This document shows, one piece after another, positions 702 through 59,788 of a DNA stretch of 64,000 bases. The DNA lies in IMG/VR virus record IMGVR_UViG_3300028840_006156; one strand, written 5' to 3'. The stretch is from a virus. Positions within the stretch are counted from its first letter, which is position 1. Each line of letters starts with the position of its first letter. Both the position numbers and the translations under genes were made by a program. The notes below the pieces were generated by a model. That model was not told the DNA's origin and searched no databases. It saw only the letters and a list, made by a program, of their open reading frames with translations.

Positions 702-817
702 TTTTTCGTGTTCTGGACGGCTCATCAGCGCCGGCATGTCCAAGCCGGCGGACGCCCGCAAGTGACAATGCCCTGGTCGCAGGACCATGTCTCCCAGACG
801 GGGGCGTTTCGCCGAGG

Positions 818-2252: not shown

Positions 2253-3398
2253 CTACGGGGCCGGGTCGGTCGAGACCTGCACGACGTCTGCGCTCGTCAC
2301 GAGGTAGCTCGACGCGGAGGGCACGACGTCGCCGGCCGGCACGACGATCGCACCCTGCGGCACCGAGAGCCCGTCGATGTCCTGCCAGGCTCCGGTGATC
2401 TGGGCGAGGTAGAGCGTGGCGCCGACCTCGACCTCGCCGGTGATCCCAGCCGTCGGGTCGCCGATCACAGCGACCGCGGTCGACCGCGCCTGCTCGAGCA
2501 CGGTGGCCTCGTCGAAGTCCGGGTCGACCACGAGGTTGTAGGCCTCGATGAAGACCGTCTGCGGGTTGAGGGCTTCGACGATCACGGGGATCCCGGCGCA
2601 CCTGTACTCGCGGAGTACCTTTCGCACCTTGTTCGCGAGCGAGCTGTTCGTCGTGCCACCTCCCCCGAGGACCCGGACCCGGACCCGGCCGGTCTGCGCG
2701 TCGCCGTCGAGGAGCTCCTCGGCCTGGGCGGAGATGATCCCGGGCACAGCGGCGGCCGCCGCCTCGATCGCTCCGAGGGTCCCGCGTCGAGCTCGCTGGT
2801 ACGCGGTCTCGAGCTGCGCCTGGTAGTCCTCGGGCGACTGCTCGACGAGACCACCGCTTGCGGGCTCGTTGTTGTTGACCGCCAACGTCGTGTCTGGGAC
2901 CTGCCCGAGGATCGTCGAGATCGTCAACGCCGGGACGTTGCCGCCCGGACCAGCGGTCGTGGCGATCGCGTCCACGGTGTCGCCCGTCACGCCGAAGCCC
3001 AGCGGCAAGTCGACGGCGGTCTCGAAGGTCACGCCGCCGTTGGTCGAGACGAGGGTCCCCGCCGCGATCACGATCGACGATCCGCCCGGATCGCGCTTGA
3101 AAGTCAGCGGGACGATCGACGAGGTGGCTCCCTGTCGGATCTCGCCGCCGAGTTCGCTGGCGCCGTAGCGCTCGAGGGCCTCGATGCTGACCGACAGCGC
3201 CGTGCGCAGCCGGGTCTCGTTCAGCTCCCGCTGGGCATAGGTCGACGCTCGCTCGGACATCGCACCGACGGCCGCGAAGGCGATGTTCACCTGGCTACCA
3301 GGCGTCTCCATGATCTCGCGGGTCAGGCGAGTAGGCCGCGCGAGCCCCTCGCGTTTGGCGGCCTGGATGTAGTCCTCGGCGGTGGGCAGCGTGGCCAC
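2253..3398 (-). CDS. baseplate J-like wedge protein
   Basis: 381 aa; IAAGTLV...FET, AIATTAGPGGNV, GG..EQS.EDY, AAAAVPGI pattern; TACCCT-N6-GTG upstream. Confidence 0.9.
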   Translation of the reverse strand: MATLPTAEDYIQAAKREGLARPTRLTREIMETPGSQVNIAFAAVGAMSERASTYAQRELNETRLRTALSVSIEALERYGASELGGEIRQGATSSIVPLTFKRDPGGSSIVIAAGTLVSTNGGVTFETAVDLPLGFGVTGDTVDAIATTAGPGGNVPALTISTILGQVPDTTLAVNNNEPASGGLVEQSPEDYQAQLETAYQRARRGTLGAIEAAAAAVPGIISAQAEELLDGDAQTGRVRVRVLGGGGTTNSSLANKVRKVLREYRCAGIPVIVEALNPQTVFIEAYNLVVDPDFDEATVLEQARSTAVAVIGDPTAGITGEVEVGATLYLAQITGAWQDIDGLSVPQGAIVVPAGDVVPSASSYLVTSADVVQVSTDPAP

Positions 3399-3839: not shown

Positions 3840-4730
3840 TCACCGCGCCGGCAGGTCGAAGAGGAACGTTTGCAGACCCTCGGTCCGCGGCTGCACGCTG
3901 ATCACGAACCGGACCACGCCGCCGCCATTGGCCTCGACCTCGACGCGGGCTTCGACGGCCGCCTCGCGTACGTCGGGCTCGAACTGGATCTGCTCGCGCA
4001 CGCGCACGGCGATCTGCTGGACGTCGTATGGCCGCGCGACGCGCTTGGCGAAGCTGGTCAGGCCGTAGTTGGGTAGGTGCGAGAAGGCCCCGACCTCGGT
4101 CTGGATCCGCTGGAGGATTCGCGTCTTCAGTGACTCGGCGTTGTCCGCGAGGACGAGCTCGCCGGCCTCGTCGTAGCGCCAGATCCGCTCTCGCGCGACG
4201 GGCAGACCGGTGACCGGGTCGATCTCGAAGAAGGGGTTCGACCAGTCGCCGTAGGTGTCGACGGCCGCGATCCCGGTCCGGTTGCGCAGCGGACGGTCGC
4301 GCGCGGTCACGATGAAGATCGTCTGGCCGCCGAACTTCTGGCAGTTCGCGCCGAGGATCGGTCCGACGAGCTGGACCGCGTACTCGATCCCGGGCTCGAG
4401 GGTCGGCGCCGTCCAGACATGTAGCTGCGTAGGATCGTCCTCGTCTTGGAGGATGTCGTTGATCACCACGCCGCGGGTGGGCCTGCGCTTGCCGGGCTCG
4501 ACGTAGATCCCACCGTCGAGGGTAGGCACCGCTGGATCGATCGGGTCGACGCGCCAGTTCAGCGCGTTGCGGCTGTCGCGGTAGCCGATCGGGTCGCGCC
4601 ACTTCGGCGGGTCGGTGAAGAAGACCGTGATCTTGTTCTCTCCGACGCACAGGGCCGTGATGATCGAGAGCAGGCCCGGTCCGCCCCAGGGCGCGACGGT
4701 GCCGAAGGGCAGGATCCCGAAGCCGCTCAC
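3840..4730 (-). CDS. baseplate wedge gp25/gpW-like protein with N-terminal beta-rich (Ig-like) domain
   Basis: C-terminal ILQRIQTEVG.F..LPNYG...QIQFEPDVREA matches gp25/W family; adjacent to J. Confidence 0.75.
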   Translation of the reverse strand: MSGFGILPFGTVAPWGGPGLLSIITALCVGENKITVFFTDPPKWRDPIGYRDSRNALNWRVDPIDPAVPTLDGGIYVEPGKRRPTRGVVINDILQDEDDPTQLHVWTAPTLEPGIEYAVQLVGPILGANCQKFGGQTIFIVTARDRPLRNRTGIAAVDTYGDWSNPFFEIDPVTGLPVARERIWRYDEAGELVLADNAESLKTRILQRIQTEVGAFSHLPNYGLTSFAKRVARPYDVQQIAVRVREQIQFEPDVREAAVEARVEVEANGGGVVRFVISVQPRTEGLQTFLFDLPAR

Positions 4731-11745: not shown

Positions 11746-11953
11746 GGAGCGCGCTGGGTGGTACGCCGTCCTCGGGTGGGTCAACAAGTCCATCTTCGGT
11801 CCCGATGGCGGCGTCATGCTGACACCCCGGGGGAGCGGCGACGACGAGCAGGATTACGCGCGCGCTGCTGCCTGTCGGGCGTGGTCTGACCCGAAGTTCA
11901 TGGAGGGCACGGCGGGAGAGTTCGTGTTTGTCCACTGGGCCTACAACTGCTAG
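11738..11953 (+). CDS. hypothetical protein
   Basis: Overlaps upstream stop; MDEERAGWY. Confidence 0.5.
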   Translation: MDEERAGWYAVLGWVNKSIFGPDGGVMLTPRGSGDDEQDYARAAACRAWSDPKFMEGTAGEFVFVHWAYNC

Positions 11954-13833
11954 CTCGGCACGTCGATCCCGGTCCTCGTCTCGGTGACCTGGATCGACGC
12001 GCTGACGTCGAGGTAGTTGATCGCGTCGCCGGCGATCTGCCAGCCGCTGTTGATGTCCCACGCGAGGGTCAGCTTCTTCGTTCGAAACTCGCGCTGCAGG
12101 TACTCGGACCGCGACAGGGCGGCGTAGCGCAGCGCGTCCTCGACGGGCAGCCCGGCCTGGCGCGCTTGCTCGCTGCGCTGGAAGTCGGACCCCTCCGCGA
12201 GGATCAGCGCGGAGCTGACGATCCCCGTCGTCGGATCCTCGGCGGGAAGCTCGACGGCGATCGGGTCCTTCGGCCGCATGGCGAACACGTCGCCGACGAG
12301 ACCGGCTTCGAGGTTCTCGGGCAGCGCGGACAGGACCGGAGTGCGGATCTGGACCTCGAAGTCCCCGCGCGCGAGCTGCTCGTAGATCGACGCCGCCGCT
12401 CGAGTCAGGGCCGCGATGATCTCCTCGGGCGAGCCGCCGGCGACGCTGTCGAGGTTGAAGACCTTGATCTCGTCGCGGTCTCCATTCCCGGTCGGGGTCG
12501 GCCGGTTGTTCTTGCCGAGCGGCGGCCAGATCCCCGAGTAGCGCGTGCCGGTCGCGACGTCGAAGCCGTTTAGCTTGATCGTCGGAGTCGCGGTCCCCTT
12601 GAGGTTGCGGGCGAGGTTGAGCTCCTCGATATTGGCGCCGTAGACGAAGGTGCGCGTCGAGGTAGGCGGGGGCGTCGTGTCGCCGGCGGTCGTGCTCTCG
12701 CGGTAGTAGGTGCGCGGGTTGGTGATGACGAGCTCGCTCGCCACGAGTTGCTGTGCCGACTGCCGAGGAGTCCTGATCAGCGGGATGAAGCCGGCCGAGA
12801 TGACCAGGTCGGTGATGAAGTCCCAGTACGCGGTCTTCTGCCTGTTGCCCGGCGATCGCTTGCGGCCCTTCTTCGACACACCCCTCGAGTCCACCCATGC
12901 CTTCGGGCGGATCTCGTCGATCGTCGGGAGCGGGTCGATCCCGCCGTCGACGTTGCGGACCTCGTTGACGACGGAGATCCCACGGAAGCCCGGAAGGCCG
13001 AAGCGACGAGTGCGAGGCTTCAGCGTCGATCCTTGCGTCTTGAGCACGCGCGCGTCCTCACGCAGATATGCCGCCTGCGCTCGGGCGGCTGCGGCGGCTG
13101 CGTCGTCCCCCGATGCAGCGGCATCAGCAGCGACCGCGTCCTGGGCCCTGGCGTCCTTCAGGAGCCGCCTTCGGTCTCGGCCAAGCGCGCGCTTGCTCTC
13201 CTCCTCGAAACGAGCGTCAAGCGTCTCCGTGGCCGCGAGTGCGTCGCCGGTGAGCAGCAGCTGGATCGCCTCGTCGAGCCGCAAGAAGCCCGGCAGGTCC
13301 TCGAGCTGGTTGGGCGGGATCTCGGCGTCGAGTAGCTCGCCGGTCAGGTCGCGCGCGTCGAACATGACCTCCTGCGACGTGTCGTTGATCGTGATCGAGT
13401 GCTTGTCGACGAAGCCGCGGAACAGCTCCGTCGGCCCATGCTGGTTGACGTCAGGGAGGAGCAGGCCGTCAGCGCCGGGCACCTGTCCGGCTGCCCACTC
13501 CTCGGGCGTGTAGACGCCGCCGAAGACCTGCACCGCGATCGCCCTGATCAGTCGCGGGTCGAAGGGCAACTCCGCGAGTTGGAACGTCATCTTGGCCGTG
13601 TCCGCTTTGCGGTAGTTGTTCAGCTCGACCGTGCACTGCGTCGGCACAAGGTCGCGGCCGATCAGGACGAACTGCGCGGCCTGCTCGAGGATGTCGTCGT
13701 TGGTTCCTGACCCGAAGGACTCCGCGCCCGAGTTGGGGTTGGGCGCGGACGGCTGAGGGGGCGTGAACGCGTCGACGTTGTTCTCGAAGCGGATCTTGAG
13801 TCGGACCTTGCAGCCTACGTAGTACTCGGTCAC
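11950..13833 (-). CDS. baseplate hub protein (gpD/Mu gp44-like) with coiled-coil insertion
   Basis: VELNNYRKADTA.MT, FRGFVDKHSI, FDARDLTG.LLD pattern; position between LysM and spike genes. Confidence 0.75.
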   Translation of the reverse strand: MTEYYVGCKVRLKIRFENNVDAFTPPQPSAPNPNSGAESFGSGTNDDILEQAAQFVLIGRDLVPTQCTVELNNYRKADTAKMTFQLAELPFDPRLIRAIAVQVFGGVYTPEEWAAGQVPGADGLLLPDVNQHGPTELFRGFVDKHSITINDTSQEVMFDARDLTGELLDAEIPPNQLEDLPGFLRLDEAIQLLLTGDALAATETLDARFEEESKRALGRDRRRLLKDARAQDAVAADAAASGDDAAAAAARAQAAYLREDARVLKTQGSTLKPRTRRFGLPGFRGISVVNEVRNVDGGIDPLPTIDEIRPKAWVDSRGVSKKGRKRSPGNRQKTAYWDFITDLVISAGFIPLIRTPRQSAQQLVASELVITNPRTYYRESTTAGDTTPPPTSTRTFVYGANIEELNLARNLKGTATPTIKLNGFDVATGTRYSGIWPPLGKNNRPTPTGNGDRDEIKVFNLDSVAGGSPEEIIAALTRAAASIYEQLARGDFEVQIRTPVLSALPENLEAGLVGDVFAMRPKDPIAVELPAEDPTTGIVSSALILAEGSDFQRSEQARQAGLPVEDALRYAALSRSEYLQREFRTKKLTLAWDINSGWQIAGDAINYLDVSASIQVTETRTGIDVPS

Positions 13834-13842
13834 GCGGTCAGT

Positions 13843-14058
13843 CTAGTACGGGATCGGGCGCCCCATGCGATGGCCTTCGATCGCGTGGTAGTGCCTGCGG
13901 CCACCTCGGCGGTGCGGCGTGTGGTAGCGGCGACCGTTCTCGACCCGACCCGTGTCGACGATCGTGCGACTTCCGTCGGCGTTGATTCGAATCGCGCACA
14001 CCACCGTGGTCGCGGGCTCATCGCCGAAGTCGACGCCGACGAATATCCCATCGCCCAT
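13843..14058 (-). CDS. 71-aa protein resembling the first strands of the terminase RNase H-like nuclease domain
   Basis: IFVGVDFGDEPATTVVCAIRINADGSRTIVD vs TerL CFTGIDLGSGKAPGSDRTAMVTVKLRADGKRQVVD; TGATG coupling. Confidence 0.55.
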   Translation of the reverse strand: MGDGIFVGVDFGDEPATTVVCAIRINADGSRTIVDTGRVENGRRYHTPHRRGGRRHYHAIEGHRMGRPIPY

Positions 14059-14327
14059 CAGTTCACGCTCACGTTCCCCCACGCGGGCTCATCGAGCCGC
14101 AGCGGGATGATGATCGCGCCCGCGCATCGAACGGCCTTCGCGTGTTCGAGGGCGAGCGTGTAGGTGCTAAAAGCCGCCGTCGAGCCCGCGTCATCCTCGC
14201 TCTCGTGGACCGCCGCGACCACCACGACCATCTTCGGGTCCGCGTCGACGGCCGCCCAGAACGCCGCCTCGTTGGCCTCGGCGTCCTCCTCGTAGTTCGG
14301 GACGATGACCTGGATCGACTCAGCCAT
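14058..14327 (-). CDS. hypothetical acidic protein
   Basis: Coupled operon from motif at 15655. Confidence 0.55.
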   Translation of the reverse strand: MAESIQVIVPNYEEDAEANEAAFWAAVDADPKMVVVVAAVHESEDDAGSTAAFSTYTLALEHAKAVRCAGAIIIPLRLDEPAWGNVSVN

Positions 14328-14589
14328 CTGTCCACTCCTCGGGGTCTTCGGAGAACTCCTCGATCAATCGGCTCAGCTGTCGGTCGAGGAGCTTGATCCC
14401 CATAGCGAACTCCGCGAACTCGGTCTCTCCGACGTGGCCGAAGTGGTGCGTGTTGCCGTTGCCCTGCCCGAGGGCGACGAACAACAGGCCGCGGACACGA
14501 CCGGCCTCCGCTGCTTCGAGCAGTTCGCGAAGCTTCACGATCACGTCCTCGTCGGGATCGGCCGGTCGCAGCTCGGTAACTTCAGCCAC
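14320..14589 (-). CDS. hypothetical phage protein (LRELLEAAEAGRVRGL family)
   Basis: GTG start overlapping upstream stop. Confidence 0.6.
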   Translation of the reverse strand: MAEVTELRPADPDEDVIVKLRELLEAAEAGRVRGLLFVALGQGNGNTHHFGHVGETEFAEFAMGIKLLDRQLSRLIEEFSEDPEEWTDG

Positions 14590-15619
14590 GGATCGCCTCG
14601 TCGGGATGCTCGACCACGAAGACGAGGTAGGTCTTACTCGCGTCGATCGGCTTCTTGCTGACGATCGCGGGCTCGGGGATCTTGTAGGTGTCCGGTGGTG
14701 CGACGGTCTCGAACATGCGTGCGTCGACGACGTCGAGGCCGCTGCCCCACGCAAGACCGGCGACGTCCAGCTCGCGCCCGAGATCATCGCGGACCTTGAA
14801 CGTCGAGTACAGCGATGTCACGCCCTCCGGTTCGGGTTCGAGTCCCTCGGTCCAGATCCGAAGCTCGCCGATGTCCGCGTCACGCCAGCCAAGGCCATCC
14901 GGCGTGGCGCCCAGCTGCTCGGCGTCGGCGAGGAACTTGAGCACCTCGTCGGCCGCGTCTCGGGTGTCGTCGGGCAGAGTGAACTCGACGAGCAGGCGGT
15001 TGGCCGGGAGCGGCTGCATGTCGTCCGTCAACTCGACGTCATGCGCGTAGCCGGCGACCCCTTCGACGCGGTGAGCATCGCCGGTCGACCAGCCGCCCTC
15101 GCGCGCAACGATCGGAGCGATCCAGGCCGCGCCCATCTGCCGCGCGGCGGCCTCGGCCTTCGACTTCGTGACTCGCCAAGCGGTCGGTCGGCAGCCGTCC
15201 CAGACCGGCTCGCCGTCGATCATCTCGTGGCTGAGGATGCCCCAGCCGCCGACCATCGGAGGGCCTTCGTGTGCGCGGGCCTCCTCGTCGTCGATGTCGG
15301 CCTCGGTCATCTCGTCGACATCGGGCGGGACGATCGGGCAGCCCTCGCCATCCAGGTACACGTACCCATCCCCGTGCACGAGCGTCGGAGCCTCGCGCAA
15401 GACTTTCGCCGCGGCCTGGACGTCGGCGAGGGTGAACGGCCGAAGGTGCGCGAGTACGACATCGCACGTGGCGATCATCAGATCGCGGTTCGGCGGCGGG
15501 ACCTCTGACCATGGCTTCGCACTCGCCTTGCGAGTCTCGTATCCGTGGTCGGGCGCGAGGCGTTCGTAGGTCTCATGAAACAGCTGCGCGAGTTGCTCGG
15601 GCGTTTCGATCTTGCTCAT
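14582..15619 (-). CDS. multi-domain hypothetical protein
   Basis: N-terminal LAQLFHETYERLAP.HGYETR phage motif; starts 8 nt after motif. Confidence 0.65.
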   Translation of the reverse strand: MSKIETPEQLAQLFHETYERLAPDHGYETRKASAKPWSEVPPPNRDLMIATCDVVLAHLRPFTLADVQAAAKVLREAPTLVHGDGYVYLDGEGCPIVPPDVDEMTEADIDDEEARAHEGPPMVGGWGILSHEMIDGEPVWDGCRPTAWRVTKSKAEAAARQMGAAWIAPIVAREGGWSTGDAHRVEGVAGYAHDVELTDDMQPLPANRLLVEFTLPDDTRDAADEVLKFLADAEQLGATPDGLGWRDADIGELRIWTEGLEPEPEGVTSLYSTFKVRDDLGRELDVAGLAWGSGLDVVDARMFETVAPPDTYKIPEPAIVSKKPIDASKTYLVFVVEHPDEAIRG

Positions 15620-15627
15620 CGACCGGT

Positions 15628-15655
15628 CTACCCGCGAGCGCGCCGGGTGCTTCCC
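15628..15655 (-). promoter_or_regulatory. GGGAAG-N17-GGTAG promoter motif inside palindrome GCTTCCCGGGAAGC
   Basis: 8 nt before ATG 15619. Confidence 0.8.
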
Positions 15656-15667
15656 GGGAAGCGAGGT

Positions 15668-16830: not shown

Positions 16831-16858
16831 GGGAAGTGTACGCGGGGCTCGGCGGTAA
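16831..16858 (+). promoter_or_regulatory. GGGAAG-N17-GGTAA motif overlapping TACACT of gene 16828
   Basis: 8 nt before ATG 16867. Confidence 0.8.
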
Positions 16859-16866
16859 AACAGGCG

Positions 16867-17319
16867 ATGAGCATCGACTACAACGTCCACGTTGGGGCCT
16901 ACATTCGCGTCTGGACCACGGTCACCCGAACGGAGGTCGATCTGTGCGCTGACCACGAGCACGGTGGTGGTGCATTCTGCTCGGAGTGCGGACGCCCCTC
17001 GAAGCGCCGGATGAAGGCCGAGGAGACCCGGCCTGATGACGGGTACTACGAGGCTCACATGGACGAGCGGCTGTGCCCGTGGGACGTCGGCGACCTCTAC
17101 GACGAGGGCCGGCGGACCTACGTCATGGTCGAGAACGGCGTCGACACGACGGGTCTGCATATCGATCCGAAGTATGACGACAGCGCCGAGCAAGCGATGC
17201 CCGACGAGGCAACGTGCGAGGCGAACTTCAAGGAGCGCTACGCCAAGGAGATCGCGTGGCTCGTCGCGCACGACTGCGAGGTCGAGGTCCGCTTTGGCGT
17301 CCTCAGCTGGTCCTACTAG
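16867..17319 (+). CDS. zinc-ribbon hypothetical protein
   Basis: CADH...CSEC; antisense between TMP and LysM genes. Confidence 0.65.
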   Translation: MSIDYNVHVGAYIRVWTTVTRTEVDLCADHEHGGGAFCSECGRPSKRRMKAEETRPDDGYYEAHMDERLCPWDVGDLYDEGRRTYVMVENGVDTTGLHIDPKYDDSAEQAMPDEATCEANFKERYAKEIAWLVAHDCEVEVRFGVLSWSY

Positions 17320-19556
17320 GTCCCCTGCTCGATCGCGCCGTAGGCCTGGACGCGCCGGTCCGCGAGGCCGGCCGTCTTCTTGATGAACGCCGCGAACAGC
17401 CGGTCGGGGTCGGGGTCCGTCGTGTTGATCACGACCTCGACCTTGCCGATCTTCGTCCCGCCTGGAGCCCGCTTGTCCTTGTCCTTGTCCTTGCCCGCGA
17501 GCATGTCGGACAACGACTGCTGGAGGTCCTTCGCCTTCTTCTGGGCGGCAGCAAACTGCATCGGGGTGAGTTGCGCATCTCGCACTGCGTCAGCTGCCTT
17601 GTGGAACCTGTCCGCGGTCTTGAGGTTCGCGCTTGCTGCGCCGTAGGCCGAGTCGCGGATCCCGTCGATCGATGCGATCGCTCCGTCGAGTCCGTCGCCG
17701 ACCTTGGGGATCTTCGACATGACTCGAAGGCCGTCGCCGATCAGCTGGAGTAGCGCCGAGAAGGCGAGCCGGAACGCTCCGAAGGCCTCGATCCCGTAGG
17801 CCACGATGTCGATCATCCCGCCGAGGACCATCGACGCGAAGTCGACTGCGCCGGTGAGCATGTCGAGGCCGCTGACCATCACCGTCGCCGCGTCGGTGCC
17901 CCCGAACATGGCGACACCGACCAGGCGCAGTCGCTCGTAGAACGTGTAGAGCGACGTGATCAGCGGGAGCAGCGAGATCTTGCCCGACTCAATCGCACCG
18001 ACGAGCGACGCCTTGATCTCGTCCCACGATGTGGCGACGTAGGCCGCGAGGCCGCCGACGACCACGGCGACGCCGGAGAACGCGAGCGCGAGTCCGCCAG
18101 CGGCGACGCCGACGCCAGCGATCAGGGGGGCGAGCGTGGCGAACTTGAGGATCGTCTTGTCCATCCCTCGGAACAGCCGCAGGCCGCCCTTCCCCCCGCC
18201 GATCTTTCCGGTGATCCGTGACAGGCCTCGGCCGAGCATCCCGAGCCCGCCGCCGCCCTTCCGGCCACCCATGCCCCGACCGATCGCCATGTGTCGACGC
18301 CTGGCCATGGCGCCGAAGCCTTCACGTCCGCGCCTCATCCCTGCGCCGACGACCTGCGCAGCGGCCATGCCCTTGCCCGCGATGATCATGCCGTAGCCCG
18401 CGACGAGACGAGCGGTCGCCACGACGCTCGCTGCCTTGAGTGCAGCGCCCGCGAGCACGCCGGCCTCCTGGATCTTCGTCGCGATGTCGCGCCAGTGGGT
18501 GGCGACGTACCAGGCCCCGCGGTGTAGCCGGTCGAACAGCTTGTCGGCTGCCTTCGACAGCTGCTGACCCGCGAAGCTCGCGGCATTTTCCATCGTGTCC
18601 ATGCCGCCGCCGAAGGTGCTGATCCCGACCTTGCCGGTGGCACGGCTCATCGCGCGCTTGAGGCTGTCCATGAGCGGGGCAGCAAAGGCGCCGGCTAGCG
18701 TCATGCCCTCGGACTTCATCGTCGACGCGAGGCCACCGAAAGACTTGCCGAAGGCCGTTGCCGCCTCTTTCGAGACCCCATCGACCGCGACCTCGACGAT
18801 CTTGAGCGCCGTGTCGCCGCTTTGCTTCGCCAGCTTGTTGAACATCTGGGCGAAGTCAGCCTCGGTCTCCTTGCCGGTGACCTTCTTGAACGCTTCGCGG
18901 AGGTTGGGCTCGAGCTGCGAGAAAACAGCGACGTCAGCACCTGCGAGGCCACGTACGATCCGGCCGACGTCGGCGCCCATCTGCTTGTAGTCACCGCCGG
19001 TCGTGAACGCGAGCAGCGAGACCTTTTCCATCAGGTCGCGCTGGCGTTTCAGATCCTTGGTCACGCCGGTCACGCCGGGCGCCATCGCCGAGTAGGCCGT
19101 GGCGATGTCCTCGTAGGTTGCGGGCGACTTCTTGGCGATGTCGTAGAGCTCCGCCTGCATCCCCGCGGCGAGTTCGCTGGCCTTGGCGAACTCGGTCATC
19201 TGCCCGGTCATCACGGCCTGGGACTGACCGGCGACCCCGAACAGCTGGTACATCGTCGCCAGGCCGAGCCGGCCCTGCTCCATCTCGGAGTTGAAGCGGA
19301 CGCCCTCGCTAGCCGCCGCCGCGACGCCTCCGACGAGCGCACCGCCGGCCGCCATTGCGCCCATCCTCGCCCACTCGCGAGCAGTCTGGCCAAAGGTCCC
19401 CCGCACGCGCTCTCCCGCGGACACGAGCCGGCTCGACATCGACGCGTAGGACTTGCCGACGGTGTCCGCCGCGCGAGCCATGCCGATCGCCTCGCGCTGG
19501 AAGCTGCCCGCGGTCTTCAGGTTCGCGCGGACGTCGTAGGTGATCCCCTGCGGCAC
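17316..19556 (-). CDS. tail tape measure protein
   Basis: 746 aa Ala/Gly-rich helical protein; AKKSPATYEDIATAY TMP motif; follows chaperone genes. Confidence 0.9.
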   Translation of the reverse strand: MPQGITYDVRANLKTAGSFQREAIGMARAADTVGKSYASMSSRLVSAGERVRGTFGQTAREWARMGAMAAGGALVGGVAAAASEGVRFNSEMEQGRLGLATMYQLFGVAGQSQAVMTGQMTEFAKASELAAGMQAELYDIAKKSPATYEDIATAYSAMAPGVTGVTKDLKRQRDLMEKVSLLAFTTGGDYKQMGADVGRIVRGLAGADVAVFSQLEPNLREAFKKVTGKETEADFAQMFNKLAKQSGDTALKIVEVAVDGVSKEAATAFGKSFGGLASTMKSEGMTLAGAFAAPLMDSLKRAMSRATGKVGISTFGGGMDTMENAASFAGQQLSKAADKLFDRLHRGAWYVATHWRDIATKIQEAGVLAGAALKAASVVATARLVAGYGMIIAGKGMAAAQVVGAGMRRGREGFGAMARRRHMAIGRGMGGRKGGGGLGMLGRGLSRITGKIGGGKGGLRLFRGMDKTILKFATLAPLIAGVGVAAGGLALAFSGVAVVVGGLAAYVATSWDEIKASLVGAIESGKISLLPLITSLYTFYERLRLVGVAMFGGTDAATVMVSGLDMLTGAVDFASMVLGGMIDIVAYGIEAFGAFRLAFSALLQLIGDGLRVMSKIPKVGDGLDGAIASIDGIRDSAYGAASANLKTADRFHKAADAVRDAQLTPMQFAAAQKKAKDLQQSLSDMLAGKDKDKDKRAPGGTKIGKVEVVINTTDPDPDRLFAAFIKKTAGLADRRVQAYGAIEQGT

Positions 19557-19568
19557 CGCACGAGCGTA

Positions 19569-19844
19569 TCAGCCGGAGCCGTCCCCGTTCTCGGCTTCGA
19601 GGATCTTGCTGATCCCGTCGGCAAGCTCGACGAGGCGGACGAATGGCATGCGGTCGAGGTAGTCGGCCTGCTGGCCGCCGTAGCGCATCAGGTACGCGAC
19701 GACCTCCTTGTCCATGCGCCGGAGCGTCTTGGCGAGCTCGCCGCTGCGGACGTAGATCACGAAGCCCGCGGTCTCGAAGTCGGGTCGGACTCGTGCGCGG
19801 CTCAGCCTTCGACCCAAACTCGGCTGGCGCGCACGGCCTTTCCC
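19569..19844 (-). CDS. -1 frameshift extension of tail assembly chaperone (gpGT/T-like)
   Basis: Open -1 frame from the slippery site to TGA 19569 ends ...VVAYLMRYGGQQADYLDRMPFVRLVELADGISKILEAENGDGSG. Confidence 0.75.
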   Translation of the reverse strand, partial: GKGRARQPSLGRRLSRARVRPDFETAGFVIYVRSGELAKTLRRMDKEVVAYLMRYGGQQADYLDRMPFVRLVELADGISKILEAENGDGSG

Positions 19845-20602
19845 TCGGCGTCCGTCGGCTGGATCGACGCGACGAACGTCCGGTTGACCAGCATCTGCGC
19901 CTTCGGGCTCAGCCTCGACCACCACTCGCGCGGGTCCGAGTTGCCGCCGGCGGAGACGATGAACTGGACGCAGTCGTCGATCGATCCCGCGCGCGAAGAC
20001 AGGCGACGGACCTCGGCCGTCGTTGCGTCGCGCAGGGCGAAGGCGAGGTCCACGGGACCGCCCTTCCAGTGGCGCGAGTCCATGACCGACATGGGTAGCG
20101 AGCAGATGATCCGGTCGCCATCGCGTCGGCGCGTGGACTCCATCTCGATCACGTCGACGTCGGTGGGCAGCACGAGCGCGACGAACTCCTGCAGGATCGA
20201 CATCTGGACCTTGCCGGTCCGCGTGTGCCACCAGGTCGTCAGCTCGAGTCCGCCGCGATGACGTCCGCCGGCGGCGAGGTAAGGCAGCACGACCTCGGGT
20301 CCGGGCGAGCGAGCGAGCTGCTCGGCGAAGGTAAAAACCTCCTCGGCCTCGGGCTCGCGCAACCCGAACTTGAGGTCGGACTCGTCGCCCTTCCAGTGCG
20401 AGTTGTCCATCACATCTGGATGGAGGTCGAAGCCGAAGAACCCGCCGGACTTCAGGGCTGCAGGCGGCTTCTCTCCGGTCAGCGCGGGGGGTGGGATCGT
20501 CGCCTGCATCGGCGGCGGCTCGGTCTTCTTCGAGATCGTCACGCCCTCGGGCTTCGCCTGCGATACGCCAGGCGCCTCCATGAATCCGTCCCAGGTGGTC
20601 AT
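19802..20602 (-). CDS. tail assembly chaperone (gpG-like) with two tandem internal domains
   Basis: Between tube and TMP; TACCCT-N6-ATG at 20602; slippery heptamer near 3' end. Confidence 0.75.
   Translation of the reverse strand: MTTWDGFMEAPGVSQAKPEGVTISKKTEPPPMQATIPPPALTGEKPPAALKSGGFFGFDLHPDVMDNSHWKGDESDLKFGLREPEAEEVFTFAEQLARSPGPEVVLPYLAAGGRHRGGLELTTWWHTRTGKVQMSILQEFVALVLPTDVDVIEMESTRRRDGDRIICSLPMSVMDSRHWKGGPVDLAFALRDATTAEVRRLSSRAGSIDDCVQFIVSAGGNSDPREWWSRLSPKAQMLVNRTFVASIQPTDAEGKAVRASRVWVEG
19804..19954. repeat. 151-bp direct repeat, copy 1 (3' end of chaperone gene)
   Basis: 8 mismatches versus 21657-21807. Confidence 0.95.
19838..19844 (-). other. -1 programmed frameshift slippery site G GGA AAG
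   Basis: Same heptamer as lambda gpG/gpGT, in the Gly-Lys frame. Confidence 0.8.
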
Positions 20603-20647: not shown

Positions 20648-21025
20648 ATGACCACCACCGATCCCGATCCCGACCGCATCATGGACGGGTTTTTTCGACA
20701 CAGCCGCTTACTCGCCATGAAGGGGCAGGAGTGCCAGGTCGACATGTTCGTCGGCGGTGAACGGCTCGACGGCCTGCAGTGCATGTCGCTGACCGAGGCG
20801 CGCGGCGTGGCGACCTCGGTCTGGAAAATCGTCGACGCGACCCAGCTGCCACGCGTCGAAGCGGGCGTCGACCTCGAACTGCGTACACGCTTCGCCGACC
20901 CGCGCGGCAACGTGCAGCCGTGCGTCTGGACGGGGCGAGTCGTCGGTCTCGGGCTCGCTGGGCGCTCGGACTTCGTCACGGTCACGATCGAGGGCGTACG
21001 TCGCGAGTGGGGCGAGTCCGAGTGA
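20648..21025 (+). CDS. tail-tube paralogue with internal deletion, N-terminally carrying the TMP C-terminal motif
   Basis: KGQEC.V and RSDFVT...EGV shared with tube; TTDPDPDR shared with TMP C-terminus. Confidence 0.7.
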   Translation: MTTTDPDPDRIMDGFFRHSRLLAMKGQECQVDMFVGGERLDGLQCMSLTEARGVATSVWKIVDATQLPRVEAGVDLELRTRFADPRGNVQPCVWTGRVVGLGLAGRSDFVTVTIEGVRREWGESE

Positions 21026-21647: not shown

Positions 21648-22065
21648 GGTCCGAAGAGCCTTCGACCCAAACTCGGCTGGCGCGCACGGCTTTTCCCTCG
21701 GACTCCGTCGGCTGGATCGACGCGACGAACGTCCGGTTGACCAGCATCTGCGCCTTCGGGCTCAGGCGTGCCCACCACTCGCGCGGGTCCGAGTTGCCGC
21801 CCGCGGACTCCTCGGCGTGCTCTGTGACCATGGCCCGGTTGATGTAGCCGTGGCGTGGTGTCGCGTCCTCGACGATGACGAGGCGGCGCGCGCAGTAGTG
21901 ACCATCCGCCCCCAAGTAGGCCATCCGCCAAACCCCTGGCTCTGCGGTCAGTTCGCGCCACATCTTGGCGTGCGGAGTCCAGTGCTCCATCCCGTCGAAC
22001 TCGGCCTGCGTGACCTCGGTGATCGGGAGCTTCGTCTCGGGGTCGAATCGGCCTACGTGTCGCAC
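21442..22065 (-). CDS. chimeric protein: novel N-terminus fused to the chaperone C-terminal 50 aa; -1 frame stops at 21644
   Basis: GTG 7 nt after motif 22073-22100; contains repeat copy 2 with G GGA AAA. Confidence 0.6.
   Translation of the reverse strand: MRHVGRFDPETKLPITEVTQAEFDGMEHWTPHAKMWRELTAEPGVWRMAYLGADGHYCARRLVIVEDATPRHGYINRAMVTEHAEESAGGNSDPREWWARLSPKAQMLVNRTFVASIQPTESEGKAVRASRVWVEGSSDPSPRASPSSTPCEPSLASQAPSERRPSSSSPASARACAEPQRARARPSSRRPCARERAGDGRRSRARP
21657..21807. repeat. 151-bp direct repeat, copy 2
   Basis: About 95% identical to 19804-19954. Confidence 0.95.
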
Positions 22066-22909: not shown

Positions 22910-23353
22910 CTACAGGTCGACGTCCTTGACGTCGCTCACGACGCCCTCGAGACTCAACGTCACGAAGTCGCTTCGCGAGCTGATCGCGTTCTCCAGCGGG
23001 CCGAAGAAAATGTCTTGCAGCTGGATCTGTCGCGTCTGTCCGGTGGGCAGCGCCGCCGCGAAGGACAGGTCGAACTGGGCAGCTGAGCCCGCCCGACGCT
23101 TCGACCGGTCGATGATCTGCTGGCGCAGGATGTAGGGCTGTACGTCCTCGATCTGTAGCGTCGCCGAGAAGGTCGTGTTCCGGTAGATGTCGTCGTTTCG
23201 CGTCGCGACCTCCCCGAGCAGGTCCTCAGACAGCTGCTCGACGTTGTCGGTCACGGTCAGGTCGACGACGGCGTTGAACGCCGCGCTGATCGTGTTGTTC
23301 ACCAGGAAGCTGACGAAGCACTCCTGGCCCTTGAGACGTGGGTTTCCAGCCAT
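22910..23353 (-). CDS. tail tube protein
   Basis: 147 aa directly downstream of sheath; SD-like GAGGAG upstream. Confidence 0.8.
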   Translation of the reverse strand: MAGNPRLKGQECFVSFLVNNTISAAFNAVVDLTVTDNVEQLSEDLLGEVATRNDDIYRNTTFSATLQIEDVQPYILRQQIIDRSKRRAGSAAQFDLSFAAALPTGQTRQIQLQDIFFGPLENAISSRSDFVTLSLEGVVSDVKDVDL

Positions 23354-27299: not shown

Positions 27300-27749
27300 A
27301 TGGACCCCGAGACCAAGCGACTCCTCGAAGAAGCTCTACGGACGATGGTGGCGCCTCGTCCGGTGGCGCCCGTTGTCCGCGAGTTCACCGCGTTCGAGCG
27401 CGCCGTCGAAGAGGCCGGCCGGAAGTTCTACGAGCAAGCCAAGGACGGCCGGGGCTACCAGTTCGTGCGCGACGACGGCTCGAAGATCGGTCCGCCGTTC
27501 ATCGTGTCGAAGCCCACCCCGCCGATCTGCGAGCGCAGCGGAAACCCGAGCGGGACGGACACCTGGAGCCTCGGCCACCCGTGCCCGTGCAAGCCATGCA
27601 CGACCTACTGCGCGCTGCTCGACGACGGCGTGCCGTTCATCGTCAACGCGAGCGCGCTCCCGGGCACCTACCGCGAGCCGCTGACCTACGTCGGCCCCGT
27701 GCGCTCGGGCAGCCTGCGCGAGTTCGAGGACGAGGAGTCAGGACGATGA
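27300..27749 (+). CDS. hypothetical protein with Cys motif (CPCKPC)
   Basis: Start MDPETKRLL after GGGGTG. Confidence 0.6.
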   Translation: MDPETKRLLEEALRTMVAPRPVAPVVREFTAFERAVEEAGRKFYEQAKDGRGYQFVRDDGSKIGPPFIVSKPTPPICERSGNPSGTDTWSLGHPCPCKPCTTYCALLDDGVPFIVNASALPGTYREPLTYVGPVRSGSLREFEDEESGR

Positions 27750-28195
27750 GGCTCAAGGGCAAGTCCAAAGTGACGATCCTGCGCCCGGATGGCGTCGCCT
27801 GGACGCTGCCGGTCGAGGAGCTATCCATCTTCGAGTTGCCCGACTCGCGCGATCCCAACGGCCCTAGGCGCTTCGACAACATCTACGAGGGGGAATCCTT
27901 CTCGATGACGGTGCAACTCGAACCGACCGCGATGGACGTCCTGCGCGAGTTCATCGCGAAACAACAGCAGCGGCTAGACCCAAGGCCTGGGCTCGTGGTC
28001 TCGGTCCCTCGGTTCAGCCACTACGACGTAGCTCTCGCGCTGCGTATGCGGCAGCACGTGCCGGTCGGTGGCGACGTCGTGGACATGTACTCCGGGCCCG
28101 GTTCGTTGATGTGGGTCGAGTCGCCCGAGGACGATGGCGACGGGCTCATCCGCTACACGCTGCGGCGTGGCCAGGACCTCGTGAGGTCGGCGTGA
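27746..28195 (+). CDS. tail-tube paralogue (N-terminal half) with unrelated C-terminus
   Basis: RLKG, VEELS, RFDNIYEGESFSMTVQLE vs tube RLKG, VEQLS, RNDDIYRNTTFSATLQIE. Confidence 0.7.
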   Translation: MRLKGKSKVTILRPDGVAWTLPVEELSIFELPDSRDPNGPRRFDNIYEGESFSMTVQLEPTAMDVLREFIAKQQQRLDPRPGLVVSVPRFSHYDVALALRMRQHVPVGGDVVDMYSGPGSLMWVESPEDDGDGLIRYTLRRGQDLVRSA

Positions 28196-37678: not shown

Positions 37679-38795
37679 GTGGTCAGCGCCAGTCGATCGC
37701 TGGGTCAGGAGGGCCAAGGGCGTCGACGGCAAGATGCTCGGCGCACCGGCGAGGCTCCTCCTCGACGACCTCTGGTCGAAGGCCGACGCCCCGAGCAAGC
37801 GCGACCCCGAGGCCCATGTCTTCGTCTACGGCGAGTGGATCACCGTCGGTGAGATCGCCCGTGACTTCGAGTGCGCCGATCGCACGATCCGCACGCAGTT
37901 CGCGCAGATATTCAATGCTGGACTCGCCAAGAAGGGTCGCGGGGTCAACAACCACGGCCGCGAGGTCGACGGGATCTGGCTCGCCAACGTGCCCTCGGCC
38001 GGATGGTTTGATCCGCCGACCCGGATCAAATCGTCCGATCAAACCATCCACGATCGCGGATCAAACCATCCGGCTGCCCGGATCAAATCGTCCGGGGACG
38101 CGGATCAAACCATCCACGAAAACGGATCATTTAATCCGCACGATCGGCAAAAAACGTCCGCCAACCCGGATCAAATGATCCGCGCCTATAAGGAAGACCC
38201 AATTAACCCAATTGGACCCGATCAGACCCGATCGCGCGAGGCCGGGCAGGCCGGCCTGTTCGGTGACGAGCCAGTGGTGGAGGAGACTGCACCTGGTGAG
38301 TCCGTCACCCCTGCGAAGATCCGGGCCTGGTGGGACGAGGTCTTCGTGCCGCTGCGCGCCGAGACACTCGACCGATACCGGACGGGATCTGCGCAGCCGA
38401 TCGCATGCTCGAAATCCAGGATGGCGGCGCTGCGCAAGCGCATCGCCGAGACCTGCCCTGGGGTGCCGTGGACAGATCCGACCCCCGGTGTCGACGGCGT
38501 CCGCGAGCAGCTGACCCACGTCGTGCGCAACGCAGCGGCTAGGGTCCACGAGCATCGTGGAGGAGAGACCTCGTGGGGGTGGAACTCGCTCGACGCGATC
38601 CAGCCGAAGCACTGGACGGCCGAGAAGAACTTCACCCGGTACTACGAGGCACCACCTGCCGACGACAGCGACGGGAAGCCTCCGCCCGATGTCGAGGTAA
38701 TCGGCGGCGTGGTCCAATACCCTCGAGCCGACGCGACGAACTACGGCACCGGCACCGCCTACGGCGACCCACGGAGGCGACGCCGCGATGACTGA
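37671..38795 (+). CDS. replication initiator (lambda O-like, N-terminal HTH)
   Basis: wHTH-like GEIARDFECADRTIRTQFAQ; internal iterons; directly upstream of DnaB. Confidence 0.75.
   Translation: MGEWSAPVDRWVRRAKGVDGKMLGAPARLLLDDLWSKADAPSKRDPEAHVFVYGEWITVGEIARDFECADRTIRTQFAQIFNAGLAKKGRGVNNHGREVDGIWLANVPSAGWFDPPTRIKSSDQTIHDRGSNHPAARIKSSGDADQTIHENGSFNPHDRQKTSANPDQMIRAYKEDPINPIGPDQTRSREAGQAGLFGDEPVVEETAPGESVTPAKIRAWWDEVFVPLRAETLDRYRTGSAQPIACSKSRMAALRKRIAETCPGVPWTDPTPGVDGVREQLTHVVRNAAARVHEHRGGETSWGWNSLDAIQPKHWTAEKNFTRYYEAPPADDSDGKPPPDVEVIGGVVQYPRADATNYGTGTAYGDPRRRRRDD
38001..38181. repeat. iteron-like repeats, candidate replication origin
   Basis: About 8 copies of (G)GATCAAA(C/T)..(A/G)TCC, one inverted (38001-14), followed by an AT-rich patch. 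Confidence 0.75.
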
Positions 38796-40299
38796 CCACG
38801 GCCTGCCCCACAACCCGGCGGCCGAGCTCGCCTGCGTCGCGGCGATCTACGCCCGAGGAGTCCCGGGCCTCGACCAGGTCGTCGCCGAGGTCCGAGACGC
38901 CGACGCGTTTCTCAACCCGAGGAACCAGGCGCTCTTCGCAGCGATGCTCGCCTGCGCTGACGCCGGCGAGCCGATCGCCGATGACCAGATCGTGAGCGAG
39001 CTTCGTCGCCTCGGTGACTTCGACCGTCTCGGCGGGGCGTCGGTCTTCGAGTACCTGCGATCCGGGATCACCACGAGGACCACCGACGCTGCGAAGGCCG
39101 TGCGCCGGGACTACATGCGCCGGCAGCTGTTCACCCAGCTGCGCGAGGTGAGCGAACGGCCGCTGCACGACGACGACGTCGCCGCCTCGATCAACGCAGC
39201 TCGACAGGTCCTCGACCGGCTCGAGCAGGACCAGGCCCGCAAGCGGGTTTCGATCCGCGACGCGGTGGCCGAGACGCGTGAGGAGCTCTACGCCGACCCC
39301 AGCGAGTTGACTGGCCACGTCCCGCTCGGCTTCGCGTCGATCGACGAGTACGCCGGAGCCCCCGAGCCCGGCGACCTGGTGATACTCGGCGCCGAGTCAG
39401 GCACCGGCAAGACGGCCGCGCTGCTCAGCTGGATCCGCAACGGCGTCCTGGACTGGCACGAGAACCTCGGCCGCTACCGACCGAGGGCCATGCCGATCCC
39501 GGCGCTCATGTTCAGCGGCGAGATGCTTCTGCCCAAGCTGGTCCGCCGCTGGCTCTCGGACATGGCTGGGATCGACGGACGGGATCTTCGTGGCCGGCTC
39601 GACCCCGAGTGGCTGGAGGCGAAGCGCGGTCGGGTCACGCACCGGGAGATCGTCGACCGCGAGCTCGACATCCTCGCCGCCTGCGCGATCGAACTCGCGG
39701 ACCCGCGGGCGTCGACGTCGATCGACGGGATCGCGGCAGAGGCTCGAGCTTGGCGCACCGCGATGGTCTCGAAGTACGGGGCCAAGTCGCCGGGGCTGAT
39801 CGGCGTCGACTTCCTGCAGCTCGTCGACCCGCCGTCGGGCCTCGCTCGGAACATCCGCAGCGACGAGCGCGAGGAGGCGAAGGCGAAGGCACTCAAGCGC
39901 CTCGCCATGGGCACAGGAACCGTCGTCACCGCGCTCTCGCAGCTGACCGTTCCGAAGGGCGCCGAGGGTGAGCGTCCTCGGGTCTCGTGGATCCGCGGGT
40001 CGAAGGGGATCCGCAACGCGGCGGACCGGATCTACCTGCTCCATCGGCCGTGGATCCACGACCCCAACGTCAGCGACCGCGAGGCCGAGTACCAGCACCT
40101 GCGGGGACTCGCCAATGAGGGCCGGCTCGGCGATCAGGGCAAGCGCTTTCGCGGGCTCGAGCACGCTCGGCACTACGCCGAGGTCGGGATCGCCAAGGGT
40201 CGAGACGGCGCGGCGTTCCGCTGGCTGCCGCTGGACTTCGCGCCCGAGTACACGCGCTTCCTCGACTGGTCGGGAAGCGAACACCAGGCCAACGGGTAG
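38788..40299 (+). CDS. dnaB: DnaB-like replicative helicase
   Basis: PHN..AE, GAESGTGKT Walker A, FSGEM, VDFLQL, ALSQL, IAKGRDG. Confidence 0.92.
   Translation: MTDHGLPHNPAAELACVAAIYARGVPGLDQVVAEVRDADAFLNPRNQALFAAMLACADAGEPIADDQIVSELRRLGDFDRLGGASVFEYLRSGITTRTTDAAKAVRRDYMRRQLFTQLREVSERPLHDDDVAASINAARQVLDRLEQDQARKRVSIRDAVAETREELYADPSELTGHVPLGFASIDEYAGAPEPGDLVILGAESGTGKTAALLSWIRNGVLDWHENLGRYRPRAMPIPALMFSGEMLLPKLVRRWLSDMAGIDGRDLRGRLDPEWLEAKRGRVTHREIVDRELDILAACAIELADPRASTSIDGIAAEARAWRTAMVSKYGAKSPGLIGVDFLQLVDPPSGLARNIRSDEREEAKAKALKRLAMGTGTVVTALSQLTVPKGAEGERPRVSWIRGSKGIRNAADRIYLLHRPWIHDPNVSDREAEYQHLRGLANEGRLGDQGKRFRGLEHARHYAEVGIAKGRDGAAFRWLPLDFAPEYTRFLDWSGSEHQANG
40272..40299 (+). promoter_or_regulatory. 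GGGAAG-N17-GGTAG motif encoded in DnaB 3' end (TAG is its stop)
   Basis: 7 nt before ATG 40307. Confidence 0.8.
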
Positions 40300-50801: not shown

Positions 50802-51067
50802 GTCTTCGGGTCGCGGACGTACTTCGTGACGGTGACCTGTTTGGCGATCACGGGATAGGCCGCGGTCGCGTAGCTGTGCATCTCGTTGGAGTTCCACTCC
50901 AGCGCCCAGAGCGACCCGTCATCGCGCCGGACGATCGCGCGCTCGCAGGCGTAGGACCTGCGGGTCCCTGTCGTCTCCTGATCGATGCACGCGTCGCCGT
51001 AGCTGAGTTGCTCCAACTCGGCGATCAACTCGTCAGGGTGCTCTGTATCGTTCTCGTCGAACTCCAT
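50798..51067 (-). CDS. acidic hypothetical protein
   Basis: ATG 7 nt after motif 51075-51102; sits between terS and terL. Confidence 0.6.
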   Translation of the reverse strand: MEFDENDTEHPDELIAELEQLSYGDACIDQETTGTRRSYACERAIVRRDDGSLWALEWNSNEMHSYATAAYPVIAKQVTVTKYVRDPKT

Positions 51068-51074
51068 GTCCGAC

Positions 51075-51102
51075 ATACCGCCCGCAACCCCGATCGCTTC
51101 CC
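51075..51102 (-). promoter_or_regulatory. GGGAAG-N17-GGTAT promoter motif
   Basis: Exact spacing. Confidence 0.75.
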
Positions 51103-51135
51103 GACGCACCCGCGCGGGTGCGCTACGATCGCGGC

Positions 51136-52686
51136 ATGTTCGCCCCGGCCAAGCGCAAGAAGGCAAAGCGCCGCCGACGGATCCCGGCGAAGGCGACGAG
51201 GCGCTGGCACGTCGAGTTGGAGGAGGCCCGGCGCGACCCGATCGTCTTCATCGAGTACGTGTTCGGGATCAAGCTCGATGACGTCCAGAAGTCCTGGGTC
51301 CGCTTCTGGATGCGCCACCGGAAGACGGTCCTGCACGGGTCGATCGGGCTGGGCAAGTCGCTGCTCATGCGCGGCATGGCGTTGTGGTTCATGGGCCGTG
51401 ATCCCGGCGTCCAGATCATCTGGCTGTCGGCGACGCAGCGCCAGCCGAAGAAGCACCTGAGCCTGATCGCCACCCTGATCGAGTCCGACGGCGCCCGGTC
51501 TCGACTTCATCACGTGTTCCCGCGGCTCAAGCCCGGCAACACCTGGCGGTCGACCGAGCTCACCGTGGCGCGCGAGGTCGACCCGCTCGAGGCCGACTAC
51601 ACGGTCTCGGTCTACGGCGCCTACTCGGACTCGCTGCTCGGCTCGCGCGCCACGATCCTGATCGTCGACGACCTGTGCAACTTCTCGAACACGCTCACCG
51701 AGGACGGCCGATCGAAGATGATCGAGTGGCTGGCGACGGTCCTCTCGCGCCTGACCACGCCCGACTACCGGATGATGGTGATCGGGAACTTCTGGCACAA
51801 GCAGGACGCGACGATGGACCTGCATCGCGCGAAGGGGTTCGAGTACATGAAGACCCCGGCGTTCGTCCGCGACGAGGCCGGCGAGATGATCCCGACGGCG
51901 CCGGCGGCCATGCCGGTCCCGACGATCATCGAGAAGATCAAGGAGCTCGGACCGCGCCGCGCGAAGCAGATGCTCGAGTGCGAGGCGGCGGACACGAACC
52001 TCGGCCGGTTCAAGGACATCTACTTCGCGCGCGCCCTCGAGCTTGGCCGCAGGCTGCCCTTCAGGCCCAAGCGCGAGTACGAGCCCTGCTTCACCGGGAT
52101 CGACCTCGGGTCGGGCAAGGCGCCCGGGTCGGACCGGACGGCGATGGTCACGGTCAAGCTCCGCGCCGACGGCAAGCGCCAGGTCGTCGACGTCCGGTCT
52201 GGGTGCTGGGGCAGCGACGAGATCAAGCGGAACCTCCGCGAGGTGAAGCGCCGCTACAACACGACGATCGCCGTCGAGAACAACGGGATCCAGAAGCTCG
52301 TGATCGACTTCTTGCGCGAGGCTACGGTGATCCCGCTCAAGGACCACAACACCAACGCGGTCAACAAGCGGGACATGGCCTACGGCGTCGAGGGCCTGGC
52401 CACTGAGATGTCCGAGGGCCTGTGGGTGTTCCCATGCGGCGACGCGGCCACCTTCGACCCTCGGTCCGGCATGACCGAAGACGAGGACAGCGAGCCCCAC
52501 GAGGAGCTACAGGCGATGATCGGCGAGGCGCTGACCTTCGACCCGACCAAGCCCCGCGAGCATACGGGCGACCGGCTCATGGCCTGGTGGATCTGCGTCA
52601 GCGTCATGTGGAAGTCGGCGCTGTTCGAGCTCGACGAGATGGAACTCGACCTCGACGCGCCGACCCACAACATCTTTGACCGCTAG
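51136..52686 (+). CDS. terL: terminase large subunit
   Basis: GSIGLGKS Walker A, ILIVDD Walker B, GIDLG...SDRTA and VENNG nuclease motifs. Confidence 0.92.
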   Translation: MFAPAKRKKAKRRRRIPAKATRRWHVELEEARRDPIVFIEYVFGIKLDDVQKSWVRFWMRHRKTVLHGSIGLGKSLLMRGMALWFMGRDPGVQIIWLSATQRQPKKHLSLIATLIESDGARSRLHHVFPRLKPGNTWRSTELTVAREVDPLEADYTVSVYGAYSDSLLGSRATILIVDDLCNFSNTLTEDGRSKMIEWLATVLSRLTTPDYRMMVIGNFWHKQDATMDLHRAKGFEYMKTPAFVRDEAGEMIPTAPAAMPVPTIIEKIKELGPRRAKQMLECEAADTNLGRFKDIYFARALELGRRLPFRPKREYEPCFTGIDLGSGKAPGSDRTAMVTVKLRADGKRQVVDVRSGCWGSDEIKRNLREVKRRYNTTIAVENNGIQKLVIDFLREATVIPLKDHNTNAVNKRDMAYGVEGLATEMSEGLWVFPCGDAATFDPRSGMTEDEDSEPHEELQAMIGEALTFDPTKPREHTGDRLMAWWICVSVMWKSALFELDEMELDLDAPTHNIFDR

Positions 52687-59718: not shown

Positions 59719-59725
59719 GCCCGGA

Positions 59726-59781
59726 CTACCGCGCACCCGTCCGGGTGCTTCCCGGGAAGCGATCCCGCCCGCGGCGGGTAG
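59726..59781. promoter_or_regulatory. divergent pair of GGGAAG-N17-GGTAG motifs sharing palindrome GCTTCCCGGGAAGC
   Basis: Minus 59726-59753 to ATG 59718; plus 59754-59781 to ATG 59789. Confidence 0.85.
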
Positions 59782-59788
59782 GTCGAGC

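Follow-up and report, generated by a model that had tools for sequence, protein, structure and literature searches.

A 71-codon reading frame at the edge of a swapped cargo cassette in a phage baseplate operon

A reading frame of 71 codons, here called p71, was found on the minus strand of 64,000 nucleotides of viral DNA (IMG/VR record IMGVR_UViG_3300028840_006156), a stretch referred to below as the window. The original prediction had placed the frame there and had taken it for a decoy of terminase-sensing immunity or for the relic of a foreign terminase. The explanation that fits the evidence best, to which we give an even chance, is that p71 is a young, lineage-specific ORF formed at the junction at the 3' end of a swapped-in cassette, which is no nuclease and probably no dedicated decoy. 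The evidence for it comes from the slot in which the cassette is lodged, from the two ends of the frame and from its likeness to the nuclease domain of the large terminase subunit (TerL).

The window is part of a metagenomic contig of ~84 kb and belongs to a myovirus-like phage of high G+C content (about 68%). The features discussed here are collected in Table 1. The gene for TerL lies about 37-38 kb from p71, in agreement with the distance of ~38 kb given in the original prediction. Elsewhere in the window, a type II hammerhead ribozyme was detected (Rfam RF02276; 42.2 bits, gathering score 37), and five iteron-like repeats with a GATCAAACCATCC core and a spacing of 22 nt, located upstream of a DnaB-like helicase gene, make a candidate replication origin.

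Table 1. Positions of the features in the window and, where a locus is named, of cargo in related loci
Feature	Coordinates	Strand	Remarks
Type II hammerhead ribozyme	712-814	-	
Baseplate_J gene	2253-3398		
gp25-like gene	3840-4730		
627-aa tail/baseplate-module gene	11950..13833	-	conserved; downstream slot border; 68 homologues, same N-terminal start
Element upstream of the 627-aa gene	13834-13870	-	CGAT(T/C)CCG..TAnnnT, 6 nt, start codon
Slot in the window	13834-15667		
TAGACT hexamer	13840..13845	-	holds the p71 stop codon; 6 nt upstream of the GTG of the 627-aa gene
p71, 71 aa	13843..14058	-	ATG 14058-14056; TAG stop 13845-13843
Arg/His-rich tail, p71 residues 41-71	13846..13938	-	8 Arg, 5 His; predicted disordered; pLDDT <50 for residues 48-71; 0.065 bits/codon
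TerL-like segment, p71 residues 2-39	13942..14055	-	predicted strands 4-11, 17-25, 31-40; D10 aligns with the first catalytic Asp of TerL
p89, 89 aa	14058..14327	-	third cassette gene; TGA overlaps the p71 ATG (TGATG)
p88, 89 aa	14320..14589	-	second cassette gene; 8-nt overlaps on both sides
p345, 345 aa	14582..15619	-	first cassette gene; no family match
Promoter-like motif GGGAAG-N-GGTAGAC-N-ATG	15617..15655	-	ends on the p345 ATG
Hub-like baseplate-module gene, 386 aa	15668..16828	-	upstream slot border; phrog_21362 4e-10; weak baseplate hub and LysM-like matches
Further promoter-like motif site	16831-16869	+	
Antisense gene, 150 aa	16867-17319	+	weak zinc-ribbon match; own promoter motif
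Tape-measure-like gene	17316-19556	-	
Direct duplication, 151 nt	19804-19954 and 21657-21807		in the tail module
Iteron-like repeats	38037-38181		
DnaB-like helicase gene	38788-40299		
Further promoter-like motif site	51065-51102	-	
terL	51118-52686	+	phrog_38 E 1.6e-40; ATPase domain matches T7 and PhiV-1 terminases 4bij, 8dgc
terL part resembled by p71, residues 321-364	52078..52209	+	beta1 324-329 (D329), beta2 341-348, beta3 354-362 of the RNase H-like nuclease domain
SPP1-type portal gene	53871-55925		
Further promoter-like motif sites	59716-59791	both	
Cargo of related locus L008	135-962		PD-(D/E)xK/MmcB-like protein
Cargo of related locus L014	6833-7991		DHHA1 protein
Cargo of related locus L029	4466-8000		N6/N4 DNA methylase, 3.5e-10
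Cargo of related locus L034	3500-4174		weak Tad2-like protein, 0.007, below the curated cut-off

Within the baseplate operon, a hypervariable accessory slot separates the hub-like gene from the 627-aa gene. Homologues of the two bordering genes were directly adjacent in about 12 distant related loci, in which the slot is empty, and in closer relatives the slot was occupied by 0.7-3.5 kb of differing cargo. The closest relative of the 627-aa protein is P0006, with 75% identity. Next to the slot, the 150-aa antisense gene of the window stands between the tape-measure and hub-like genes, whose homologues are adjacent in L034.

In the window the slot holds a cassette of 1.8 kb, made of four genes in the order p345-p88-p89-p71 that overlap by 8, 8 and 1 nt. 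It had been claimed that p71 is the last gene of a coupled accessory operon, and this was confirmed, the cassette standing behind a promoter-like motif that ends on the start codon of p345. In its general form (GGGAAG-N16-22-GGTA-N8-14-ATG) the motif occurs 21 times in the window, against 0.01 copies expected; each copy ends on an ATG and many precede small accessory genes. This arrangement suggests leaderless transcription units. Parts of the cassette were recognized in other loci, namely a domain related to p88 in the cargo of L014, L001 and L011 and a homologue of p89 in L008. The Atlas look-up of p345 gave nothing usable.

The slot resembles the moron or accessory islands of phages in several respects. 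A variable stretch absent from relatives lies between conserved genes, a putative transcription signal of its own precedes the first cassette gene, cargo is exchanged at gene boundaries, and relatives carry there, among other cargo, a DNA methylase and a weak Tad2-like protein. The resemblance is not complete, since p71 has no assigned family or function and overlaps the upstream element of the next gene.

Both ends of p71 point to its formation at a junction. At the 5' end, the DNA of the window and that of L008, the nearest informative relative, are common through the 3' end of p89 as far as ACTGATGG, after which they diverge completely. Behind the same overlap L008 carries a gene of 269 aa, whose product is PD-(D/E)xK/MmcB-like (phrog_14517 1.2e-43, phrog_5429 8e-29). 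Read from this comparison, the coupled TGATG start of p71 appears to be inherited from the ancestral slot, and the gene behind the start appears to have been swapped. It was also considered that p71 could be a deletion derivative of the 269-aa gene; this was rejected, as neither protein nor DNA similarity was found past the start codon.

At the 3' end, p71 stops about 10 nt before the GTG of the 627-aa gene (TAG plus 9 nt), and its last codons (PIPY and the stop) lie inside the element upstream of that gene, which an alignment showed to be conserved in island-bearing relatives. CAT start codons in the alignment indicate that the upstream neighbour of the 627-aa gene is divergently oriented in several of these relatives, and for this reason the element looks like the gene's own promoter. 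Judging from conservation only, the TAnnnT element is probably the promoter of the 627-aa gene and would give a leaderless transcript. The two frames are in phase, yet they are separate genes: a read-through fusion of p71 with the 627-aa protein was discarded, given that all 25 aligned homologues share the N-terminus and that the window is without tRNA.

The original prediction had been based on a likeness between p71 and the catalytic strands of the terminase nuclease. With BLASTP, residues 6-35 of p71 aligned with residues 325-358 of TerL (12 of 34 positions identical, 25.4 bits, pairwise E 1e-4). When 26 TerL relatives were aligned, G327, D329, E387 and D485 proved invariant; G8 and D10 of p71 fall on the first two of them, and T17 falls on the near-invariant T341. 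The two proteins share, in the same order, an F-x-G-V/I-D-x-G strand with the first catalytic Asp, a T-x-x-V strand and a D-G-x-R-x-I/V-x-D hairpin. The AF2 model of TerL (pLDDT 80.9) displayed the full beta1-beta2-beta3-alpha1-beta4-alpha2-beta5 topology, in which the resembled strands are followed by alpha1 (366-380) and beta4 (383-388). The strand boundaries predicted for p71 coincide with those of the aligned beta1-beta3, and the match begins at the first strand of the nuclease domain, although the p71 model is of low confidence (pLDDT 54.6); a further strand was predicted at 43-47, followed by disorder.

The match became stronger when the family profile replaced the single TerL sequence. 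When residues 2-36 of p71 were compared by hhalign with residues 321-359 of the TerL family (26 members), the probability was 61% and E was 8.1e-5 for one comparison, and the observed score of 33.6 was above the maximum of 20.5 reached by 300 shuffles of p71. The family HMM was also run against 1034 six-frame ORFs of the window, and the p71 ORF came first after TerL (8.5 bits, E 0.038), 7 bits over the next one (1.4 bits). Among 4501 ORFs of related loci the best score was 6.7 bits, and no TerL-like fragments were found in the relatives' baseplate regions or whole records.

It is possible, though on the unlikely side, that this likeness arose by chance and that p71 is an unrelated small accessory protein, perhaps one of counter-defence, given that beta-hairpin motifs such as xGxDxG and NADGS recur in many folds. 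The gain with the family profile, the rank of p71 in the window and the beginning of the match at a domain boundary, with coinciding predicted strands, argue against chance. On the other side, an all-versus-all BLASTP of the 95 predicted window proteins placed p71/TerL as third-best pair (25.8 bits, E 0.029 per query). Chance alone would produce about 2-3 pairs of this quality, and the best background pairs, at 24.3 bits, lie only 1.5 bits below. The likeness is therefore of borderline significance, and after full look-elsewhere correction it is not significant. The claimed alignment itself is there, with D10 on D329. The presence of a methylase and of a weak Tad2-like protein in the slot of relatives also fits an unrelated accessory protein.

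Database searches likewise favor a chance likeness. Among 5.8 billion clusters p71 retrieved itself alone. When it was compared by HMMER with 1.84 billion protein representatives, itself and one repeat protein (P0073) were found, and no terminase. No match at all was obtained in NCBIfam, PADLOC or PDB sequences, nor in PHROGs, and the single match in Pfam was at chance level and not a terminase; the terminase models of Pfam and PHROGs miss p71. For p71, p89, p88 and p345 taken together, PADLOC and NCBIfam gave nothing, and Pfam and PHROGs gave weak sub-threshold matches (E 0.005-0.4), none of them a terminase. Searches of phage databases with the DNA and the protein of p71 gave no match. The original prediction had proposed that conservation in relatives be checked, and p71 was absent from every related locus and near-complete related phage genome examined.

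The match to P0073 concerns the same hairpin as the TerL alignment. The IRxNADGSxxxxxD segment of p71 corresponds to one repeat unit of this delta-60-repeat-like protein, whose units read LIRLNADGSKD, and an E-value of 7e-4 is reached only when five repeats are summed. Proteins of the delta-60 family consist of a tandem array of roughly 50-60-residue repeats, and P0073 is a long array of this kind, whereas p71 has a single copy of the motif and no array. In the ESM Atlas the neighbours of p71 were BcrAD, FtsA fragments, a Mutator transposase and GNAT proteins; RNase H-like and actin-like ones occurred among them, and no terminases. With the RNase H-like and actin-like (ASKHA) folds, represented by FtsA and BcrAD N-termini, Mutator transposases and DUF429, p71 shares a G-x-D-x-G first strand and a beta-meander, but it has no sequence-profile match to any of these families, and all Atlas scores are below the usable level (features 0.88; TM 0.5-0.6 on a model with pLDDT 0.49). 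Unrelated RNase H folds, the outcome set against a terminase likeness in the original prediction, were thus seen in part, but as weak matches on a poor model.

Under the preferred junction reading, the best candidate source of the N-terminal 40 residues of p71 is a fragment of a terminase-type nuclease, a descent that we regard as tentative and somewhat short of an even chance. To this extent the relic of the original prediction stands, and its foreign nature was not supported: the Smith-Waterman score of p71 was 60 with its own TerL and 61 with those of relatives, and no terminase appeared among the 1.84 billion proteins. A recent self-duplication of terL is also unlikely, because p71 resembles the TerLs of relatives no less than its own. 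At the DNA level terL was the top-scoring site of the window, just marginally above unrelated DNA. The semi-global score was 33.2 as compared with 28.6-29.8, but 13 internal gaps were needed, and a recent duplication of terL DNA was rejected as the source of p71. When the two halves of the p71 DNA were aligned separately, terL was not top-ranked and the C-terminal half was unremarkable. A collinear DNA match of p71 and terL over RRYHTP/RRYNTT (p 0.006 against codon shuffles) did not hold up as evidence in its own right.

The p71 ORF is real and reads best in its own frame. Its G+C content by codon position is 0.67/0.51/0.82. Its start could alternatively be a GTG at 14082, giving 79 aa. The codon model gave 0.243 bits/codon, which is below 96% of true in-frame chunks and above 98.5% of wrong-frame chunks (real genes: mean 0.66, 5th percentile 0.42; wrong frames: mean -0.76, 95th percentile 0.11). 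The signal differs between the two parts of the gene, with 0.38 bits/codon in the N-terminal 40 codons and a much lower value in the last 31 codons, which encode the His/Arg-rich tail that had been described correctly. Three pipelines called p71 as a gene, in assemblies of apparently one same genome; across these assemblies the neighbouring 627-aa protein differs solely in how its start codon is written. All known copies of p71 are identical, and the records appear to derive from one genome.

Translation of p71 is considered quite likely. That the ORF is untranslated, its 225 nt serving as a spacer or as regulatory sequence from p89 to the 627-aa gene, with the frame open by chance at 68% G+C, is an improbable alternative. 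It is favored by the codon score under the 5th percentile of real genes, by the absence of a clear Shine-Dalgarno sequence before p71, by the overlap of the 3' part with the conserved upstream element, and by an estimate from base frequencies in which a 71-codon frame is open by chance in ~20% of cases at such composition. Against it stand the best score among the six frames of the site, the inherited TGATG start on which the PD-(D/E)xK/MmcB-like gene of L008 also begins, and the way in which the ORF spans the gap, leaving no more than 10 nt. No signal of RNA structure was found either: a structured RNA was ruled out, as the region showed no Rfam family and its folding was not unusual (z = +0.8).

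Whatever its origin, p71 cannot be a nuclease and has no enzymatic role, because a single one of the three catalytic residues is retained, along with no more than four strands. Of the catalytic carboxylates of TerL (D329, E387 and D485) D10 is the only counterpart in p71, and no residue could be reliably aligned with the other two. The likeness extends over ~38 residues, and p71 has no equivalents of alpha1, beta4, beta5 or the ATPase domain. Even on the low-confidence model, the complete terminase nuclease fold is not present in p71.

That p71 is a functional mimic of the phage's own TerL nuclease, acting as a decoy or blocker of terminase-sensing immunity (Avs1-3, Upx) or modulating the phage's packaging motor, and maybe one of several self-derived fragments, is judged very unlikely. 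In PMC13601566, SeAvs3 is described as binding the nuclease in its native fold together with the ATP-containing ATPase active site, and EcAvs2 as binding mainly the ATPase domain and one nuclease helix. These surfaces are missing from p71, which is predicted to be all-beta and has no ATPase part, no ATP site and at most 3-4 nuclease strands. The decoy of the original prediction therefore found no support: p71 has no match to PADLOC or other anti-defence families, it is not conserved in any relative, and its coding signal is weak, most of all in the tail. In favor of a mimic, EcAvs2 is reported to hold on to just one peptide of 11 residues in the nuclease domain (PMC13601566), so that short pieces are recognisable in principle. 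The invariant G-x-D of the active-site strand is kept in p71, and its cassette has a promoter-like motif of its own in a slot with likely counter-defence cargo in relatives.

The genome also copies its own genes, as seen in the 151-nt direct duplication. Its copies are 95% identical, in contrast to the weak likeness of p71 and terL. The other top non-self pairs in the BLASTP of the window (30.0, 26.6 and 25.4 bits) are as weak as the p71/TerL pair. They involve small accessory genes at 20648-21025 (+) and 27746-28195 (+) versus the gene at 22910-23353 (-) and the tape measure gene; in these three pairs, too, a small accessory gene resembles a tail protein. These pairs, together with the duplication, slightly raise the prior for self-derived fragments and are not independent proof. 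The narrower claim, that p71 is a functional fragment copied from the own terminase nuclease, one of several self-derived mini-proteins acting on a TerL partner such as immune receptors or the packaging motor, is hardly credible.

According to the preferred reading of p71 as a junction ORF, the gene behind p89 would have been replaced or truncated, and a short remnant of coding DNA would have stayed behind, flanked by the inherited coupled start and by the promoter region of the next gene. This leftover piece might most plausibly correspond to beta1-beta3 of an RNase H-like nuclease domain of terminase type, an origin that we hold with less than even confidence and whose alternative is chance. 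Translation from the inherited start would read through the leftover piece and then through non-ancestral sequence, giving the disordered tail rich in Arg and His, and would end in the TAGACT element, where the first stop is met. The resulting protein would consist of a beta-meander of roughly 40 residues, with an acidic face, and a basic tail. Any activity of such a protein would be binding and not cutting, as it has one of the three carboxylates and is without alpha1, beta4, beta5 and the ATPase domain. The ORF may be kept chiefly as it costs nothing, or because ribosomes that translate it arrive no more than 10 nt from the baseplate gene. The origin from a TerL fragment may be wrong even if the rest of this reading holds. 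A real function of p71 may exist, its copies coming all from apparently one genome, and the likely counter-defence cargo in the slot of relatives (methylase, weak Tad2-like protein) raises the prior for it.

If the likeness to TerL were real and functional, p71 would be a first example of a phage that turns part of its own conserved packaging enzyme against an immunity sensing that enzyme. As the evidence stands, p71 is one more ordinary orphan ORF, placed where a cargo cassette ends. A firmer result, and one that can be built on, is the fixed cargo slot in the baseplate operon, where exchange takes place exactly at coupled start codons, and this slot is a good place to seek new counter-defence genes.
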